Shown here in pieces: positions 9,154 to 17,793 of a stretch of DNA of 64,000 bases. Within the stretch, counting starts at the first letter, position 1. Each line of letters starts with the position of its first letter. The notes below the pieces were generated by a model. The model searched no databases and had not been told where the DNA came from. It worked only from the letters and a program-made list of their open reading frames with translations. Position numbers and translations under genes: made by a program. The DNA comes from Escherichia phage AV101. The stretch lies in sequence record OQ973471.1. One strand, written 5' to 3'.

Positions 9154-9495
9154 ATGAAACTCAATAAGATTCTTCTGGTGTGCGCTCTGGCTTTCTCTAC
9201 CACTGCGTGCTCCACCCTTCTGGACGTTGCGTCTACTGTAGACCTTGACGCGCCGACGTTCACCAATGAGCAGGCTGTGTCCAAGATGGAAGACACCATT
9301 AAGGCGCATGCGGCGTTGGATAACGCCACCCCAGGTCCGCTCCAAACTGTCTGCAACTATGACGATTCCATCCAGGAAGACGAAACTTACCACTGCATCA
9401 CCTACGTGAAGCAGGCCTCCGTCGTTCTGTATGCAGATTGTACCGAAGAACAGTGTGTTGCTACAGGCTACGATAAAGTTGAGGAAGACAAATGA
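9154..9495 (+). CDS. Small lipoprotein (putative)
   Basis: MKLNKILLVCALAFSTTACS is a signal peptide with a lipobox-like Cys; AGGTGA RBS. Start placed at the ATG at 9154. Confidence 0.5.
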   Translation: MKLNKILLVCALAFSTTACSTLLDVASTVDLDAPTFTNEQAVSKMEDTIKAHAALDNATPGPLQTVCNYDDSIQEDETYHCITYVKQASVVLYADCTEEQCVATGYDKVEEDK

Positions 9496-12382: not shown

Positions 12383-12756
12383 AAATTCAAATCCCTCGCG
12401 ATGCTGTAGCTATTGCGATTGACTACACCGGAAACGCCAAGCACATTACTGCCGTGCGCCTGATTCCTGAAAAGAACTGCGTCATCCCTCAGTTCCAGCT
12501 GAATGCCAATCCGTCGTCCAAAGACTTCGGCAAGTGGTTACAGGCTGCTCCGTTCCGTACCCAGACGAATGCTCAGATGTTCATCTCGGGTAAGACCCAC
12601 ACTGCAGCCCGTCTGTGGTTCGTGACCGCTGACCGTCGCTTTGTCGATATGTGGGAACGTCCGATGGGGTTCGTGAAGCCGGAAGATATTCAGCTGGCTC
12701 CTGAGCCTGAAGCTGTGGCTCCTGAAGAGGAAGCGAAAGATGCATCATTTATCTAA
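12379..12756 (+). CDS. Hypothetical protein
   Basis: ATG at 12379 overlaps the upstream stop (ATGA); 125 aa. Confidence 0.4.
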   Translation: MKIQIPRDAVAIAIDYTGNAKHITAVRLIPEKNCVIPQFQLNANPSSKDFGKWLQAAPFRTQTNAQMFISGKTHTAARLWFVTADRRFVDMWERPMGFVKPEDIQLAPEPEAVAPEEEAKDASFI

Positions 12757-13975
12757 AATGCCGACGGGCTATACGCCTCCGACTGAATGGAAGTACCCGA
12801 TTGACCTATCTGTTGACTACCGTAAACCTGAGAATCGCATGTACCTGCTCAAGGCTTGGGTGGAGGCGCTGTCCTATACAGAAGAGCACAACCAACAGAT
12901 GCGTCTGATGGACTATGCGATTGAAGTCACTGAAGGCATCAGCCTCGAACAGAAAGTCGAGCGCAAGATCTGGATGGCATTCCTGTGGGGTTGTTGCTAT
13001 AACGCTGTCGGACCGTGGACGATCTACAGTGAGTTCCCTGTGCCGCCTCAGTCTAAGGAAGAGATGCAGCGCTTCTCAGACTGGTACAACCTGAACTTTG
13101 AACGCATGCGATTCGATACCGACTGTCGCTACCGCAAGTCCAAGATGATTCCGTGTGTTCAGTCCTATATTGACTGGCTGGCTGGTCGTACTCAATATGA
13201 CGCTTTCCGTGGGATGCTGGTGTGCATCGATAAGACAGAACAATTCACCCAGCTGTGGGACACGGCGATGTCCTGGAAATACTTCGGTCGCCTGAGCGCC
13301 TGGAACTTCCTGGAAGCCCTGAACATGGTCTTCGGGAACGAATACACCATTGACGTCCCTGGCTTCATGCTGCGTGATCGTGATGGAAGCGAGTCCAACC
13401 GTAATGGCGCGGCGTTCTTGTCTAACCGTGACGATTGGGTGACTAAACACGGGAAGAAAAAGATCAACGGTTGCCCTATCACGGATGAAGAGTGTGACAT
13501 CCTTGAGGCCGACCTTGAGCAGGCGTTCCAGGATTGTGTGGCTGAGTTCGGGCACCTGACGTTCATCAACCGCCTGAACTTTGAAACCTCCGGTGCTTGT
13601 TGGCTGAAGAAATTCTTCCGACTGAAGAATACCCGTTACATCGGGTGGGACGCAGAGCGTACATGGGATGAGATCGACTACATGGAACGCGTCTGGCCTG
13701 AATACTCCTGCGCAGCGCTCTGGGAAGCCCGTTCGCTCTGGCTGCCAGATACCCTGTTGTGCGAAAAGGCTCCTGCAGGGCACGTTCCAGGCGTCCAGAA
13801 GTGGAAGATGCCTGTGTTCTTTGAGACTGGTGTTCCTCTGCATATCTGGCACCTGCAAAAGGGTACGCGCTGGGAACCATCCGAGGTATGTACGAACCTG
13901 AAGATGCCTGTGCGCAAGGTTGAGGACAAGTCGAAGTCCAGCAGCGTCAACCTCATGGCACTCTTGAAACGCTGA
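12740..13975 (+). CDS. Hypothetical protein; candidate base-modification enzyme by context only
   Basis: 411-aa ORF translationally coupled downstream of the P-loop kinase gene; no motif recognised by eye. Confidence 0.4.
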   Translation: MHHLSKMPTGYTPPTEWKYPIDLSVDYRKPENRMYLLKAWVEALSYTEEHNQQMRLMDYAIEVTEGISLEQKVERKIWMAFLWGCCYNAVGPWTIYSEFPVPPQSKEEMQRFSDWYNLNFERMRFDTDCRYRKSKMIPCVQSYIDWLAGRTQYDAFRGMLVCIDKTEQFTQLWDTAMSWKYFGRLSAWNFLEALNMVFGNEYTIDVPGFMLRDRDGSESNRNGAAFLSNRDDWVTKHGKKKINGCPITDEECDILEADLEQAFQDCVAEFGHLTFINRLNFETSGACWLKKFFRLKNTRYIGWDAERTWDEIDYMERVWPEYSCAALWEARSLWLPDTLLCEKAPAGHVPGVQKWKMPVFFETGVPLHIWHLQKGTRWEPSEVCTNLKMPVRKVEDKSKSSSVNLMALLKR

Positions 13976-13983: not shown

Positions 13984-14011
13984 TCCTCGCCTATAAAGCG
14001 AGGATATTATC

Positions 14012-14179
14012 ATGTTACAAGATCTGCTGGTTTATGCGCTTCCTGGCGCGGTTGTCGGCTTCATTGCTGGTGCTCTGGTCTTCCGTAAACACGCGCAAGA
14101 CGGTGAAGTGATTGTTCAGAAGGGTAAAGATATCCTGGAACAAATCGAAGCCAAACTGGACGAGCTGAAGAAAAAGTAA
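14012..14179 (+). CDS. Small membrane protein (55 aa)
   Basis: Hand-translated MLQDLLVYALPGAVVGFIAGALVFRK...; below the ORF-track cutoff; its GAGGA RBS lies inside the upstream hairpin. Confidence 0.4.
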   Translation: MLQDLLVYALPGAVVGFIAGALVFRKHAQDGEVIVQKGKDILEQIEAKLDELKKK

Positions 14180-14207
14180 TCTGACTGGGGTTGCTTCCTT
14201 CAATAAA

Positions 14208-14248
14208 GGGGAATGGGTTATTATTAGCCCGTTCCCCTTTCTTTTTGC
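14208..14248 (+). terminator. Rho-independent terminator with embedded TATTAT
   Basis: Stem GGGGAATGGG/CCCGTTCCCC, loop TTATTATTAG, then TTTCTTTTT; preceded by TTCAATAAA at 14199. Confidence 0.65.
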
Positions 14249-14261
14249 AAGGATATACATC

Positions 14262-14459
14262 ATGGAAACCCAAGATTATAAGATCTTAGTGACAACTGTT
14301 GGCTTCGACGGGAAGAATCAATCTATTGCAGTAGACACTTCCGTTCTGGAGTTCAAGGACAAGAGTTCGGCAGAAACGGCGTTTGCTCATTTGGTAAAAT
14401 CACAAAGACATATGAGCACTTTTATGTGTGTCAAACAAACATACACCAAACTCTATTAA
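14262..14459 (+). CDS. Hypothetical protein
   Basis: 65-aa ORF after the terminator. Confidence 0.35.
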   Translation: METQDYKILVTTVGFDGKNQSIAVDTSVLEFKDKSSAETAFAHLVKSQRHMSTFMCVKQTYTKLY

Positions 14460-14471
14460 GAGGATTTCACT

Positions 14472-14696
14472 ATGGCAATGCAACGAATTGAAGATATGGA
14501 CTCCCTGGATATCGAATCTATGGTGTCTGTAATGCTCGAAGAAGATCGCAAGACCCCTGTGGTACAGTATCAGATGCCGGAATTGGGCGACGCTGATGGG
14601 CTGTGGAAAATGCTGAACGGCAACAAATCCTCCGGTAAGAGTGGGTTTGTCCGTGGCGAACTGAATATCATTTGTGTCGGAGGGTGTACAAGATGA
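14472..14696 (+). CDS. Hypothetical protein
   Basis: 74-aa ORF. Confidence 0.35.
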   Translation: MAMQRIEDMDSLDIESMVSVMLEEDRKTPVVQYQMPELGDADGLWKMLNGNKSSGKSGFVRGELNIICVGGCTR

Positions 14697-14911
14697 TCAA
14701 GAATACCCGAACAATGAAGCGCGCAATCGCTCACTGTGTCCATTCAGTGGCAACTATTATGTTCCGCCACCACATCACATTTGATGAAGCACTGGACCCA
14801 CAGTACCATGAAGAGCGTTGGGATTTGTTGTTAAAGAACGGTGCCAAACCTGAGCATAAAGATCAACTCCTTGGGATGACCAAGGCGCAGCTCGTCGGTG
14901 AATCCAAATGA
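14693..14911 (+). CDS. Hypothetical protein
   Basis: ATG at 14693 overlaps the upstream stop (ATGA), GGAGGG RBS; 72 aa. Confidence 0.35.
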   Translation: MIKNTRTMKRAIAHCVHSVATIMFRHHITFDEALDPQYHEERWDLLLKNGAKPEHKDQLLGMTKAQLVGESK

Positions 14912-16023
14912 TCTACCTCCTGTTTGGTGTGCCATTGGTACTGGCTATCCTGTTTGTGACCTACCACCGCAAGACCCATGAGCCGAAAGAGACTCTGATA
15001 GCGACCGCGATTGTGGTGGTGCTATCCTGTCTGATTCAGGCGGGGACTTATGCTGCGTTCTCTCTTGGTAGTTCAGGGGATGTTGAGATCCTGAACGGGT
15101 ACGTCACTGCAAAGGAGCGGAATAAGGTGAGCTGTGAGCATTCATATGAATGCAACTGCTACTACACCACATCATGCTCCGGCTCCGGCAGCAGCAAGTC
15201 CTGTACCCGCACTCGCCATTGCAGTACATGTTATGAGCATTCATATGACGTGGACTGGGATGTGTTGACGACTGTCGGTAATCTGACGATTGACCGCATT
15301 GATCGTCGCGGCCTTGGTCAGCCCCCGCGCTGGGCGCAGGTTCAGATCGGCGAACCCGCAGCCCGTGAGCATTCCTACATGAACTATGTGCTGGGTAACA
15401 AGGACTCTCTGTTCTCTCGCTCGGACCAGCAGTTTGCTGAGCGCTTCAAAGACAAGATTCCGAAGTATCCCGAAGTCTATGACTACTATCGCGTCACTCG
15501 TGTACTGAATGTGTCTGGTCTGGCGTTACCGACCACATACTGGAACGACTATCTGAATGATGTCCTGAAGAAGCTGGGCGCAGCCAAGCAGGTGAACATC
15601 GTCTGGGTTGTGACTTCCGGCCAGCCAGTTGAATACTTCCAGGGCTTGGTCTATGCTTGGGATGGTGGTAAAAAGAACGACGTTATCGTCGTGACCGACA
15701 TCAGCAAAGATCTGAAGATCAACTGGGGTAAGAGCACTTCGTTCGCTGATGGTATGCATAACCGTGAACTCCATTCTCGTAATGGCATGGCTCTCACAGG
15801 CCACGACATGGGTGTCGGTGTCATGGCTGATGTTGTCGCTAACATCACCAAAGGCTACAACCGCGTTGAGATGAAGGAAATGGAGTACCTGAAGTGGCGG
15901 GAACTCAAGACCTGGGAAGTTGTGATTGTTGTTCTACTGGGCTGTCTGCCGTTCACCGCAATTTTCATATTACAGCGAATGGAGTACAATGGTGGCCGTC
16001 GTCGTTATCCGTTTAATTTTTAA
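14908..16023 (+). CDS. Membrane protein with N- and C-terminal transmembrane segments and a Cys-rich central domain
   Basis: Hydrophobic N-terminus LLFGVPLVLAILFV and C-terminus VVIVVLLGCLPFTAIFIL; Cys cluster CEHSYECNCYYTTSC. Confidence 0.5.
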   Translation: MIYLLFGVPLVLAILFVTYHRKTHEPKETLIATAIVVVLSCLIQAGTYAAFSLGSSGDVEILNGYVTAKERNKVSCEHSYECNCYYTTSCSGSGSSKSCTRTRHCSTCYEHSYDVDWDVLTTVGNLTIDRIDRRGLGQPPRWAQVQIGEPAAREHSYMNYVLGNKDSLFSRSDQQFAERFKDKIPKYPEVYDYYRVTRVLNVSGLALPTTYWNDYLNDVLKKLGAAKQVNIVWVVTSGQPVEYFQGLVYAWDGGKKNDVIVVTDISKDLKINWGKSTSFADGMHNRELHSRNGMALTGHDMGVGVMADVVANITKGYNRVEMKEMEYLKWRELKTWEVVIVVLLGCLPFTAIFILQRMEYNGGRRRYPFNF

Positions 16024-16041
16024 TCAAAAGAGGAAGTAAGA

Positions 16042-16611
16042 ATGTCTCAATCTAAGGGTATCGCAACAGGTTGGATAGTTGGTTTGGCTTTGCTGGGTAT
16101 AGTGATTCTCGGCATCAGTACAGTCATCAGCTACTTCAACGACTTCAACCGCACTGAGCAGCAGGTCAAGAAGTTCAACAAAGACTCCGAGAACTACCTG
16201 AGCAACTACACGCTCAAAGTTCAGGAGACGGCGCAGATTCCTGACATGTATAAAGACGGCCTGAAGGAAGTGATCAAAGGCACGTTCGAAGGGCGTTATG
16301 GCGCTGATGGTTCCAAGGCCGTCATGCAGTGGATCCAGGAGCAGAATATTCAGTTCGATTCCAGCTTGTACAAAGAGATCCAGGTGGTGATCAGTTCTGG
16401 GCGTGATGAATTCCGCATCAGCCAGACCAAGAAGCTGGATATCTGCACAATATACGAAACCAAGCTGGCTCAGTTCCCTGGTTCGTTAATTGCTGGTATG
16501 TTTGGCTACCCGCGCATCGATCTTGACAAAACCTGTCAGGTGGTGAGTGATACCCGTACCCAAGCCGCGTTCGACGCTGGTATTCAGAAACCGATTAACT
16601 TCAAAGGCTGA
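16042..16611 (+). CDS. LemA-family membrane protein (putative)
   Basis: N-terminal transmembrane helix followed by a region resembling LemA (NDFNRTEQQVKKFNKD...); AAGAGGAAG RBS. Confidence 0.45.
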   Translation: MSQSKGIATGWIVGLALLGIVILGISTVISYFNDFNRTEQQVKKFNKDSENYLSNYTLKVQETAQIPDMYKDGLKEVIKGTFEGRYGADGSKAVMQWIQEQNIQFDSSLYKEIQVVISSGRDEFRISQTKKLDICTIYETKLAQFPGSLIAGMFGYPRIDLDKTCQVVSDTRTQAAFDAGIQKPINFKG

Positions 16612-16615
16612 TGTC

Positions 16616-17029
16616 ATGAGCGTGAAACTCACTGAATCCCTGACACTGGACCAACAGCAGGCTCTGTTGGATGAAGTAGTGATCTCTGCTATCAAGCAAG
16701 GGATCATCAAAGACGACATATTGATTACCCGCCCCGAGATGATCCATCATCTGGTGGTGTGCCTGGGTGAGGCCAGCAACCCTCGCAAGAAGATCGTGCT
16801 GTTTACTGATGGTGTGATCCTTCCGAGCGGGAACTGTGCGTTCTTGGATGTGGTTGAACATCCGAACACGAAAGGCAAAGAGGTCAAGACTTCTGTTCCG
16901 GTGACCCCATACACCGAGGGTGTTGATCAGCTGTCTTGGTTTGAGACAATCAACACCATTTATGTGATGGCACCGGACGGTAAACCAGTTCGGGATCTAC
17001 GAGGCGGCAAAGTAGAATCTGAAGACTAA
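16616..17029 (+). CDS. Hypothetical protein
   Basis: Start placed at the ATG at 16616, just after the upstream stop, instead of the overlapping ORF-track start. Confidence 0.45.
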   Translation: MSVKLTESLTLDQQQALLDEVVISAIKQGIIKDDILITRPEMIHHLVVCLGEASNPRKKIVLFTDGVILPSGNCAFLDVVEHPNTKGKEVKTSVPVTPYTEGVDQLSWFETINTIYVMAPDGKPVRDLRGGKVESED

Positions 17030-17046
17030 TCGTTCTTCAATAAAAG

Positions 17047-17077
17047 GGGATAGGGTATTATTGCTCTATCCCTTTTT
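17047..17077 (+). terminator. Rho-independent terminator with embedded TATTAT
   Basis: Stem GGGATAG/CTATCCC, loop containing TATTAT, then TTTTT; preceded by TTCAATAAA at 17036. Confidence 0.6.
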
Positions 17078-17140
17078 CGTGGACAGGAACATGACAGACA
17101 AGCCAAGAAAGATGAAGAACAAACGCCGGAGCAAACGCTG

Positions 17141-17596
17141 ATGACTACCAAACCAACTTATGAAGAACTGGCGCAGACCGTTCTGACCTTTGACAGCACC
17201 CTGAAGAATCTTTACAAGGTGCTGGGAAATAACCCGACTTCAGAGTCAGGAGAAACAGTTAATCTTCTGTTACTGATGAACCCTCTGTGGGATATTGATG
17301 CCACTATTGCTGCCCTGAAAGATCCTAGGGCACAGGAGCCGGAGCCAACCCCTGTATCCACTGGGATTCAGAAATACCTGGAGAACTTTGACGAGTACTC
17401 CTTCACCGATCTGCTCCTGCGTGATATGATCAACGCAGAACGCCGTCGCCAGGGGAAGAACTGTCCTGTGGTCCAGTCTGATGAAGAAATCGAGCAGAGT
17501 GTTAGAGAAGATCTGAACAGCACCTACTCGCCGATCGATCTGGCTGTAATGATTGTTCAGGCGCTGTCCTACGCCGCCAAAGGAGAAACGAAATGA
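17141..17596 (+). CDS. Hypothetical protein
   Basis: 151-aa ORF. Confidence 0.45.
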   Translation: MTTKPTYEELAQTVLTFDSTLKNLYKVLGNNPTSESGETVNLLLLMNPLWDIDATIAALKDPRAQEPEPTPVSTGIQKYLENFDEYSFTDLLLRDMINAERRRQGKNCPVVQSDEEIEQSVREDLNSTYSPIDLAVMIVQALSYAAKGETK

Positions 17597-17793
17597 AGAA
17601 ATCATCTGCGGCTGTTGCTGCTATGCTAGCGTTGTCAGAAATGGAAATCGTCGCCGCGCATCGTGGTGATGACATGTGGGGGCGTCGTTACACTCAGGGT
17701 GGCACACCCGGCGAACCGGGACATGGTCGCCCATCTGTAACCCGCAAGAAGAAGGCGAAGACCAATGGAAAGAACAAGCGCAAACGTAAGTGA
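17593..17793 (+). CDS. Hypothetical small basic protein
   Basis: 66 aa; Lys/Arg-rich C-terminus; ATGA overlap with the upstream gene. Confidence 0.35.
   Translation: MKKSSAAVAAMLALSEMEIVAAHRGDDMWGRRYTQGGTPGEPGHGRPSVTRKKKAKTNGKNKRKRK

Follow-up and report, generated by a model that had tools for sequence, protein, structure and literature searches.

A probable phage-borne version of the bacterial LemA–TPM membrane module in Escherichia phage AV101

Introduction

What is the adjacent pair of membrane protein genes carried by Escherichia phage AV101 (sequence record OQ973471.1), and what might it do for the phage? The pair was studied within a window of 64,000 nucleotides, the whole stretch of DNA analyzed. 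A first-pass annotation, made from the letters of this DNA, had placed a Cys-rich two-transmembrane protein and a LemA-like protein at positions 14908–16611 and had suggested envelope remodelling or superinfection exclusion. Both open reading frames (ORFs) were found exactly there, on the + strand:

14908..16023, + strand: ORF-A, 371 amino acid residues, predicted inner-membrane protein with three transmembrane (TM) segments, a periplasmic Cys/His-rich beta domain and a TPM-fold domain
16042..16611, + strand: ORF-B, 189 amino acid residues, predicted single-pass membrane protein with a diverged LemA-like helical domain

In PHROGs, ORF-A matched phrog_2087 (E 5e-163) and ORF-B matched phrog_1383 (E 5.8e-86), and tblastn detected them in 483 and 497 phage records, respectively; both are therefore clearly genuine conserved genes. 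We read the locus as a strongly diverged form of the bacterial LemA–TPM membrane module that is carried by the phage; its two products would form a periplasm-facing hetero-complex with a role in envelope or membrane homeostasis. That the two proteins are a diverged TPM and LemA pair forming one module is very probable; the full statement, including the complex and its role, is given a probability of about 45%.

Assignment of ORF-B to the LemA Superfamily

When ORF-A and ORF-B were searched as single sequences against Pfam, NCBIfam, PADLOC and the PDB, nothing significant was found; information came only from profiles and predicted structures. The Pfam LemA family (PF04011) gave 13.7 bits (E 0.055) with ORF-B, and this match covered residues 125–158 only. 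The score falls below the cut-off (26.2), and the LemA-likeness of ORF-B is detectable only with profiles. Sub-threshold Pfam LemA matches were present in 9 of 40 ORF-B homologs (best E 0.0016), and a precomputed Pfam domain was recorded in 0 of 97 close homologs. When a profile of 40 ORF-B homologs was used against the PDB, the top match was 2ETD, the Thermotoga LemA protein (E 4.8e-4, residues 32–160). The hhalign comparison of the ORF-B family with 2ETD gave an E-value of 5.6e-5, and that with 27 bona fide PF04011 proteins gave a probability of 96.8% (E 2.2e-10) over 136 columns. The profile alignment spans from just past the membrane anchor to the Y-x-T/N-...-F-P-G-...-M-F-G-(F/Y) signature; the homology extends over the whole soluble domain and covers the C-terminal LemA signature (Y-N-x-x-I-x-x-F-P-...-F-G-F).

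The architecture of ORF-B is also of the LemA type, with a single TM helix at the N-terminus (residues 12–30 by hydropathy) and, after it, a helical bundle of ∼150 amino acid residues, and the AlphaFold model was all-helical, with a predicted local distance difference test score (pLDDT) of 82.7. Two features were placed on the sequence:

16069..16134, + strand: N-terminal TM anchor of ORF-B, residues about 10–31, Kyte-Doolittle peak 2.56
16135..16524, + strand: LemA-like domain of ORF-B, residues about 32–161, placed by alignment and hhalign

Recorded with this domain are the signature (in the form Y-x-T-...-F-P-G-...-M-F-G-Y), a co-varying pair of Cys residues (Cys135/Cys165) and two phage-specific invariant motifs, G-R-Y-G-x-D-G-S and Q-W-I-Q-E-x-N, which in the alignment replace the central segment of bacterial LemA. 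When the helical model was compared with known structures by Foldseek, 2ETD ranked fifth (E 0.6, TM-score 0.29–0.35); all matches were non-significant, and helical bundles were not discriminated.

By profile comparison, ORF-B is a member of the LemA superfamily that lies outside the current Pfam boundary. The LemA-like label of the first-pass annotation, which had named the lack of a LemA profile match together with the lack of a phenotype on expression as the outcome that would speak against it, was thus upheld at the profile level, with 2ETD as the best PDB match.

ORF-A as a TPM-Type Partner

The AlphaFold model of ORF-A was confident (pLDDT 90.5; predicted template modelling score 0.79). 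Based on hydropathy, the model and comparison with homologs, the protein was divided as follows:

14908..14964, + strand: hydrophobic segment 1, residues 1–19, Kyte-Doolittle peak 2.35, AlphaFold helices 2–5 and 7–20
14983..15069, + strand: hydrophobic segment 2, residues about 26–54, Kyte-Doolittle peak 2.03, AlphaFold helix 26–54
15076..15381, + strand: beta-rich Cys/His domain, residues 57–158, with unusually long beta-hairpins
15502..15897, + strand: TPM-fold domain, residues about 199–330, with the family motif W251-x-G-G-K-K-N-D258-V
15910..15978, + strand: C-terminal TM segment, residues about 335–357, Kyte-Doolittle peak 2.59, AlphaFold helices 335–345 and 347–357

The first two hydrophobic segments are joined by a basic loop (HRKTHEPKE), and the last is followed by an Arg-rich tail (GGRRRYPFNF). 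Hydropathy and the AlphaFold helices agree on three hydrophobic segments, and the earlier description of a two-transmembrane protein has to be corrected.

The C-terminal ectodomain has the alpha/beta fold of TPM proteins. Its top structural matches were the thylakoid-lumen TPM proteins TLP18.3, Psb32 and LMTP1, at a sequence identity of ≤15–17%. A TPM profile check was also proposed in the first-pass annotation: weak sub-threshold matches to the Pfam TPM family (PF04536) were obtained for 10 of 46 ORF-A homologs (best E 1.8e-4), and none for ORF-A itself at E-values up to 1. When the ORF-A family was aligned by hhalign with the TPM proteins encoded beside bacterial lemA, 54 columns were matched (E 0.0018, probability 15%), which correspond only to the central strand-helix-‘W-G-G-K-K-N-D-V’ segment (‘W-G-x-G-x-K...N-x-V’). 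The canonical TPM motifs (Y-V-x-D-x-A, N-N-G-V-L-L and I-E-V-G-Y-G-L-E-G) were not found in ORF-A, and the IEVGYGLEG loop had no counterpart among the positions that are at least 90% conserved in the phage family. As a conjecture, the invariant D192 (V-Y-D-Y-Y) could be the equivalent of the N-terminal Asp of TPM domains. In its predicted placement, the domain is followed by the C-terminal TM segment (335–357) and the basic tail, as in extracytoplasmic TPM proteins. ORF-A is a TPM-fold partner with additions, and the phage pair is homologous to the whole bacterial module.

Comparison with Bacterial LemA–TPM Operons

That LemA proteins pair with a second membrane-anchored partner in bacteria, as the first-pass annotation had argued, was borne out in Thermotoga and Neobacillus mesonae, where the gene after lemA encodes a PF04536 TPM protein and its start codon overlaps the lemA stop codon. 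The argument is stronger than it was first put, because ORF-A, not recognised there, is itself the TPM-fold partner, so that the phage pair matches the whole bacterial module. In Thermincola (L170/L171, positions 4001–7812), lemA is followed by a gene for a 263-residue protein, then by NfeD and FloA. The 263-residue protein has no Pfam record and aligns with the TPM proteins of Thermotoga and Neobacillus; this locus ties LemA–TPM to SPFH-type membrane organisation, FloA being a flotillin.

The bacterial TPM partners have a signal peptide, a C-terminal TM segment and a Gly-rich tail, and bona fide LemA proteins start with MKK followed by a TM segment; from these features, both bacterial domains should be extracytoplasmic. 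The bacterial operon (LemA, PF04011, COG1704, 2ETD; TPM, PF04536, YgcG-type) and the phage pair thus share the same two superfamilies in adjacent, translationally coupled genes, with both partners membrane-anchored and their domains, as predicted, outside the cytoplasm. The differences are several. Both phage proteins score below the Pfam gathering thresholds. In ORF-A, two extra N-terminal TM segments replace the signal peptide, a Cys/His beta domain of ∼100 residues is present that the bacterial partners lack, and the tail is short and Arg-rich instead of Gly-rich. ORF-B has the GRYGxDGS and QWIQExN motifs where bacterial LemA has its central segment.

The Cys/His Domain and Membrane Topology

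The Cys/His domain of ORF-A contains C76, H78, C82, C84, C90, C99, C105, C108 and H111, and its AlphaFold strands comprise residues 57–74, 79–91, 98–109, 114–121, 124–128 and 150–158. In 260 ORF-A homologs, the seven Cys (residues 76–108) together with His78 and His111 were conserved at 71–98%, which agrees with the Cys-rich description given at first. Both residues of the C84–C105 pair were present in 230 homologs, neither in 26 and only one in 4; the corresponding counts were 181, 61 and 18 for C90–C99, and 249, 5 and 6 for C82–C108. Because these positions are gained and lost pairwise, the domain is likely to hold three disulfides. C76, H78 and H111, which are nearly invariant, are left outside the co-varying pairs and may form a Cys-His-His metal site. 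When the domain was compared with known structures, no confident match was found (Foldseek probability ≤0.3 to the FliF collar and toxin hairpins).

In ORF-B, Cys135 and Cys165 were both present in 60 sequences, both absent from 34 and present singly in 2. Some ORF-B homologs have a lipobox in place of the anchor (LGGC in Vibrio phage phi 3; IAGC in P0086), and the loop between the first two TM segments of ORF-A, like its C-terminal tail, is basic by sequence charge. Because of the Cys co-variation in both proteins, the lipobox variants and the basic loop and tail, both soluble domains are predicted to be periplasmic, with three passes of ORF-A and one of ORF-B through the inner membrane. The signal peptides of bacterial TPM proteins and the MKK-TM starts of bona fide LemA point the same way. 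With this, folds and a topology are assigned to two conserved ‘dark-matter’ phage genes.

Distribution and Obligate Pairing

The genus counts of the tblastn matches (ORF-A/ORF-B) were nearly identical: 168/166 for Salmonella, 62/62 for Escherichia, 55/54 for Klebsiella, 29/29 for Erwinia and 22/22 for Vibrio phages. The pair was carried by Ackermannviridae, ICP1, PhiW-14 (gp86/87), T4-like phages of Aeromonas (Aeh1 p307/p306), Acinetobacter phages, T5-like phages of Vibrio, Pectobacterium, Providencia and Aeromonas, and the jumbo groups Ea35-70, RaK2, 121Q and GAP32; these carriers come from many families, include myoviruses as well as T5-like siphoviruses, and together infect many proteobacterial hosts. 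When IMG/VR loci were collected with ORF-A as the seed, ORF-B lay immediately downstream on the same strand in 79 of 80, and the contig of the exception ends 126 nt past ORF-A; with ORF-B as the seed, ORF-A lay upstream in 80 of 80. The median gap between the two genes in these loci was about 18 nt. A third linked gene was sought in 69 collapsed lineages and rejected, as no flanking family was common to more than 4 of them. In phages, the two genes form a module that is obligate and self-contained.

In a library of 1.84 billion proteins, the ORF-A family comprised 2,126 representatives at 50% identity, all of about 350–390 amino acid residues and with full-length matches. The family is thus large, with more than 2,000 protein clusters; roughly 1% of the phage genomes sequenced so far carry it, and it is almost entirely unannotated. 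A set of 185,579 species genomes yielded only 22 loci, mostly on contigs of metagenome-assembled genomes (MAGs), and the locus of an Achromobacter isolate was phage-like (YqaJ recombinase, RecA and thymidine kinase); a purely cellular origin for the copies on genome contigs was rejected on these grounds. In 4 of the loci (L186, L187, L191 and L192), ORF-A had no LemA-like neighbour when both the phage and the canonical LemA profiles were tried. Three of these (L187, L191 and L192) are high-GC MAG contigs that appear to be cellular (Kofleriaceae, Deltaproteobacteria).

Several single loci were also recorded. One (L176, positions 341–1992) was the only locus seen in the bacterial-type order, with the LemA-like gene first and slightly overlapping the ORF-A homolog. 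Seven of the 22 loci came from MAGs of the candidate phyla radiation (Saccharibacteria, Paceibacterota, Kaiserbacteria, Peribacteria and SR1), and these are either mis-binned phage contigs or pair-carrying phages of those bacteria. The records of Enterococcus phage Efm 3-10 (OR844942.1) and Pseudomonas phage Pa-sanjiao (MN871475.1) hold a pair 82–87% identical to that of Salmonella Kuttervirus, which suggests mislabelled or contaminant records. In Cronobacter phage GAP32 (L173, positions 1–690), a TelA-like ‘tellurite resistance’ gene, of a family associated with membrane stress, lies three genes upstream of the pair. Distant ORF-B-like matches (28–36% identity) were obtained in Prevotella Lak megaphages and Tenacibaculum phage PTm5, which have Bacteroidota hosts; no ORF-A match was among the matches listed for these records, and an adjacent ORF-A-like gene was not looked for.

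The records raise one further explanation, namely that both proteins belong to the virion, either packaged in it or as one of its components, as many of them state for ORF-B. A ‘virion structural protein’ label is attached to phrog_1383 in PHROGs and to the RefSeq records of Ea35-70, GAP32, PhiW-14, phi 3 and May, and in PhiW-14 the pair follows baseplate genes. The label was traced to no experiment: the proteomic paper examined used crude lysates, and the ORF-B protein was not among its structural proteins. Most records say ‘hypothetical’ or ‘membrane protein’, and the three-TM ORF-A is never labelled structural. The membrane anchor or lipobox, the LemA homology and the disulfide co-variation fit a host-membrane protein, and the pair is surrounded in this window by genes for replication and modification and by rII genes. 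A virion role is highly improbable, the label on ORF-B is probably wrong, and the LemA–TPM assignment corrects a propagated annotation.

Conservation and Proposed Function

Compared with its Kuttervirus and Taipeivirus relatives, ORF-A was 83 and 68% identical and ORF-B 87–90 and 84% identical, respectively, while the neighbouring rIIA was 55 and 53% identical. By these values the pair evolves much more slowly than rIIA, and it is common to phages with unrelated tails and injection machines. For these two reasons, superinfection exclusion or another arms-race role fits less well than action on a conserved host envelope feature. That the genes are strictly paired and slow to evolve suggests an envelope target that is important and conserved among hosts.

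An exclusion role would mean that the inner-membrane pair, like T4 Imm and Sp, keeps later phages from penetrating the cell wall or getting their DNA into the cell. T5 Llp is a known exclusion lipoprotein, and the exclusion genes known so far are small, evolve fast and are restricted to particular lineages. Like Imm, Sp and Llp, the pair encodes envelope proteins of the inner membrane and periplasm outside the structural module; it is predicted to face the periplasm, lies among non-structural genes beside rIIA/rIIB, and in some phages has a lipoprotein as ORF-B, as known exclusion lipoproteins are. The T4 and T5 proteins are much smaller, however, and lineage-restricted, and no sequence or fold relationship between them and the pair was detected in profile and fold searches, whereas the pair is broad and slowly evolving. 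ORF-A had no PADLOC match, ORF-B matched only LeoBC (E 4e-4, 17.6 bits) in its TM/helix region, and neither protein matched a defence or exclusion family in PHROGs or Pfam. Moreover, phages whose tails and injection systems are unrelated, and whose hosts range from Vibrio through Delftia to Sinorhizobium, share the pair at 30–50% identity, and it evolves more slowly than rIIA. Exclusion, as proposed in the first-pass annotation, was without positive evidence, and the distribution and rate of change of the pair make it quite unlikely; envelope remodelling, the other proposal, would be compatible with the data.

On the LemA–TPM reading, ORF-A would be inserted in the host inner membrane by its three TM segments. 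Its periplasmic part would consist of a beta-rich stalk, stapled by disulfides and probably carrying a Cys-His-His metal site, and of the TPM-fold domain after it. ORF-B would be signal-anchored, or a lipoprotein in some phages, with its LemA-like helical bundle facing the periplasm. Made from one tightly coupled transcript, the two would most likely form a hetero-complex on the periplasmic face of the inner membrane, which would keep that membrane, or its energy-transducing complexes, working while a large virulent phage completes its long infection cycle. The module would thus serve envelope or membrane homeostasis, with a conserved host feature and not the incoming phage as its target. The analysis shows that both genes are real, that they are related to LemA and TPM, that their pairing is obligate and that their sequences bear marks of a periplasmic location; we infer the physical interaction, the metal site and the functional role as a whole.

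This proposal is made because TPM proteins elsewhere are assembly or repair factors of membrane complexes, and because the conservation of the pair is slow and independent of lineage. The TPM proteins behind the analogy are TLP18.3 and Psb32 (photosystem II repair) and YdjH, which occurs with PspA. TLP18.3, Psb32 and LMTP1, which act in photosystem II repair or maturation, are anchored in the membrane, on its non-cytoplasmic side, and work for membrane complexes, not for soluble metabolism; they differ from ORF-A in having no LemA partner and no Cys-rich domain, and they belong to another host system. By analogy, a similar function could be served for respiratory or envelope complexes. In Bacillus subtilis, the PspA-associated YdjG, YdjH and YdjI(L) are a zinc-ribbon protein, a TPM protein and an SPFH protein. 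They resemble the phage pair in having a Cys-rich metal-binding element and a membrane-anchored TPM domain, and their context is membrane stress. No PspA or SPFH gene adjoins the phage pair, in contrast to this system. The Cys-rich element of ORF-A is predicted to be periplasmic and, by co-variation, largely of the disulfide type, unlike the zinc-ribbon protein YdjG.

A more specific form of the proposal makes the pair a widespread auxiliary ‘membrane-maintenance’ module of large virulent phages: the periplasm-facing TPM/LemA complex would repair or stabilise the bilayer or the complexes of the host inner membrane, respiratory ones or others, and so sustain the proton-motive force until lysis. 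We regard this form as rather unlikely as it stands. If true, the pair would be the counterpart, in heterotrophic hosts, of the photosystem II repair genes carried by cyanophages, and the easily deletable phage copy would give a first tractable phenotype for the long-uncharacterised bacterial LemA–TPM. Through the link between the phage and bacterial pairs, phage genetics could reveal the role of the latter.

Two competing views of the TPM domain have been put forward, one as a phosphatase and the other as a chaperone-like assembly or repair factor of membrane complexes (PMC11237479). On the first view, the TPM domain of ORF-A would be a metal-dependent phosphatase or nucleotidase acting on a phospho-substrate of the envelope or periplasm (lipid carriers, lipopolysaccharide or nucleotides are envisaged), and ORF-B would scaffold or regulate it at the membrane. 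The phage family has not conserved the canonical acidic loop motif of TPM domains, however, an enzymatic role of TPM domains is itself disputed (PMC11237479), and the neighbours of the pair are not conserved, so that the gene neighbourhood points to no substrate. A periplasmic enzyme is unlikely.

Several points weigh against the homeostasis module as proposed. The TPM sequence match is marginal (hhalign 15%, E 0.0018, and no Pfam match for ORF-A), and Foldseek did not confirm the LemA fold of ORF-B, with 2ETD in fifth place at E 0.6. Since the canonical IEVGYGLEG motif is not kept in the phage family, the activity of ORF-A may differ from that of TPM proteins. The gene order is inverted, TPM-like before LemA-like in 159 of 160 phage loci but lemA before TPM in bacteria, and the lone ORF-A of a few bacterial MAGs means that ORF-A can work without a LemA-like partner. 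The interaction and localisation of the two proteins are predictions. Several records, as described above, label ORF-B a virion structural protein, and the searchable literature holds no functional data on the phage pair or on bacterial LemA–TPM.

Gene Neighbourhood of the Pair

The source phage is an Agtrevirus-like member of the Ackermannviridae; window bases 14000–17200 were 97.7% identical to Escherichia phage A221 and 96.8% identical to an Agtrevirus. Three features near the two genes were read from the sequence:

14205..14240, + strand: strong intrinsic-terminator-like hairpin upstream of the pair, with a 16-bp stem, 7 GC pairs and a T run after it
14672..14911, + strand: small upstream ORF, the TGA stop of which overlaps the ATG of ORF-A (ATGA)
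16030..16034, + strand: Shine-Dalgarno sequence GAGGA, 7 nt 5′ of the ORF-B ATG, within the 18-nt gap between ORF-A and ORF-B

The hairpin, which separates a 55-residue membrane ORF from the block containing the pair, probably marks the start of the transcription unit. Every ORF after it through rIIA is on the + strand and tightly packed or overlapping, with 4 nt between the end of ORF-B and the start of the next gene. The ATGA overlap suggests translational coupling of the small ORF with ORF-A; as shown by clustering of flanking genes, this ORF is kept with the pair in close relatives only. A scan for sigma-70 promoters was at chance level (6 sites against 6.8 expected).

One flank of the pair contains replication and DNA modification genes (DNA polymerase, thioredoxin, nucleotide kinase and alpha-glutamyl/putrescinyl thymine pyrophosphorylase), and the other contains rIIA/rIIB. 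The pair sits in a non-structural block, and this neighbourhood is consistent with early or middle expression.

The nearby rII genes, which affect lysis inhibition, bear on another explanation, in which the pair controls the breach of the envelope as a holin/antiholin- or spanin-type component. A signal-anchored, helical, periplasmic ORF-B with lipoprotein variants superficially recalls the i- and o-spanins and T4 RI. ORF-B is, however, a compact, conserved LemA-type domain and not a coiled-coil spanin; no conserved linkage to endolysin or holin genes was found in the 69 lineages, and phages with recognised lysis cassettes elsewhere still have the pair. With neither a coiled coil nor lysis-gene linkage, the spanin/holin reading was rejected, and a role in lysis timing is very unlikely.

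Other genes of the region were recorded as well. Just 5′ of the transcription unit lies a 411-residue ORF (window 12740–13975), for which the record of a relative gives alpha-glutamyl/putrescinyl thymine pyrophosphorylase clade 2; as this gene belongs to a thymidine-hypermodification pathway, the phage DNA is probably hypermodified. On the 3′ side, the small ORFs corresponding to positions 8305–9354 of Yersinia phage CAU_YEP3 (about 16616–17600 of the window) are labelled ‘adenylyl-sulfate kinase’, ‘rIIB lysis inhibitor’ and ‘NADH dehydrogenase-like protein’ in that record and ‘hypothetical’ in all the others, and the CAU_YEP3 labels are probably over-annotations. At the start of the window (230–1203, + strand), four tRNA genes are clustered (Met-CAT, Asn-GTT, Tyr-GTA and Ser-GCT).

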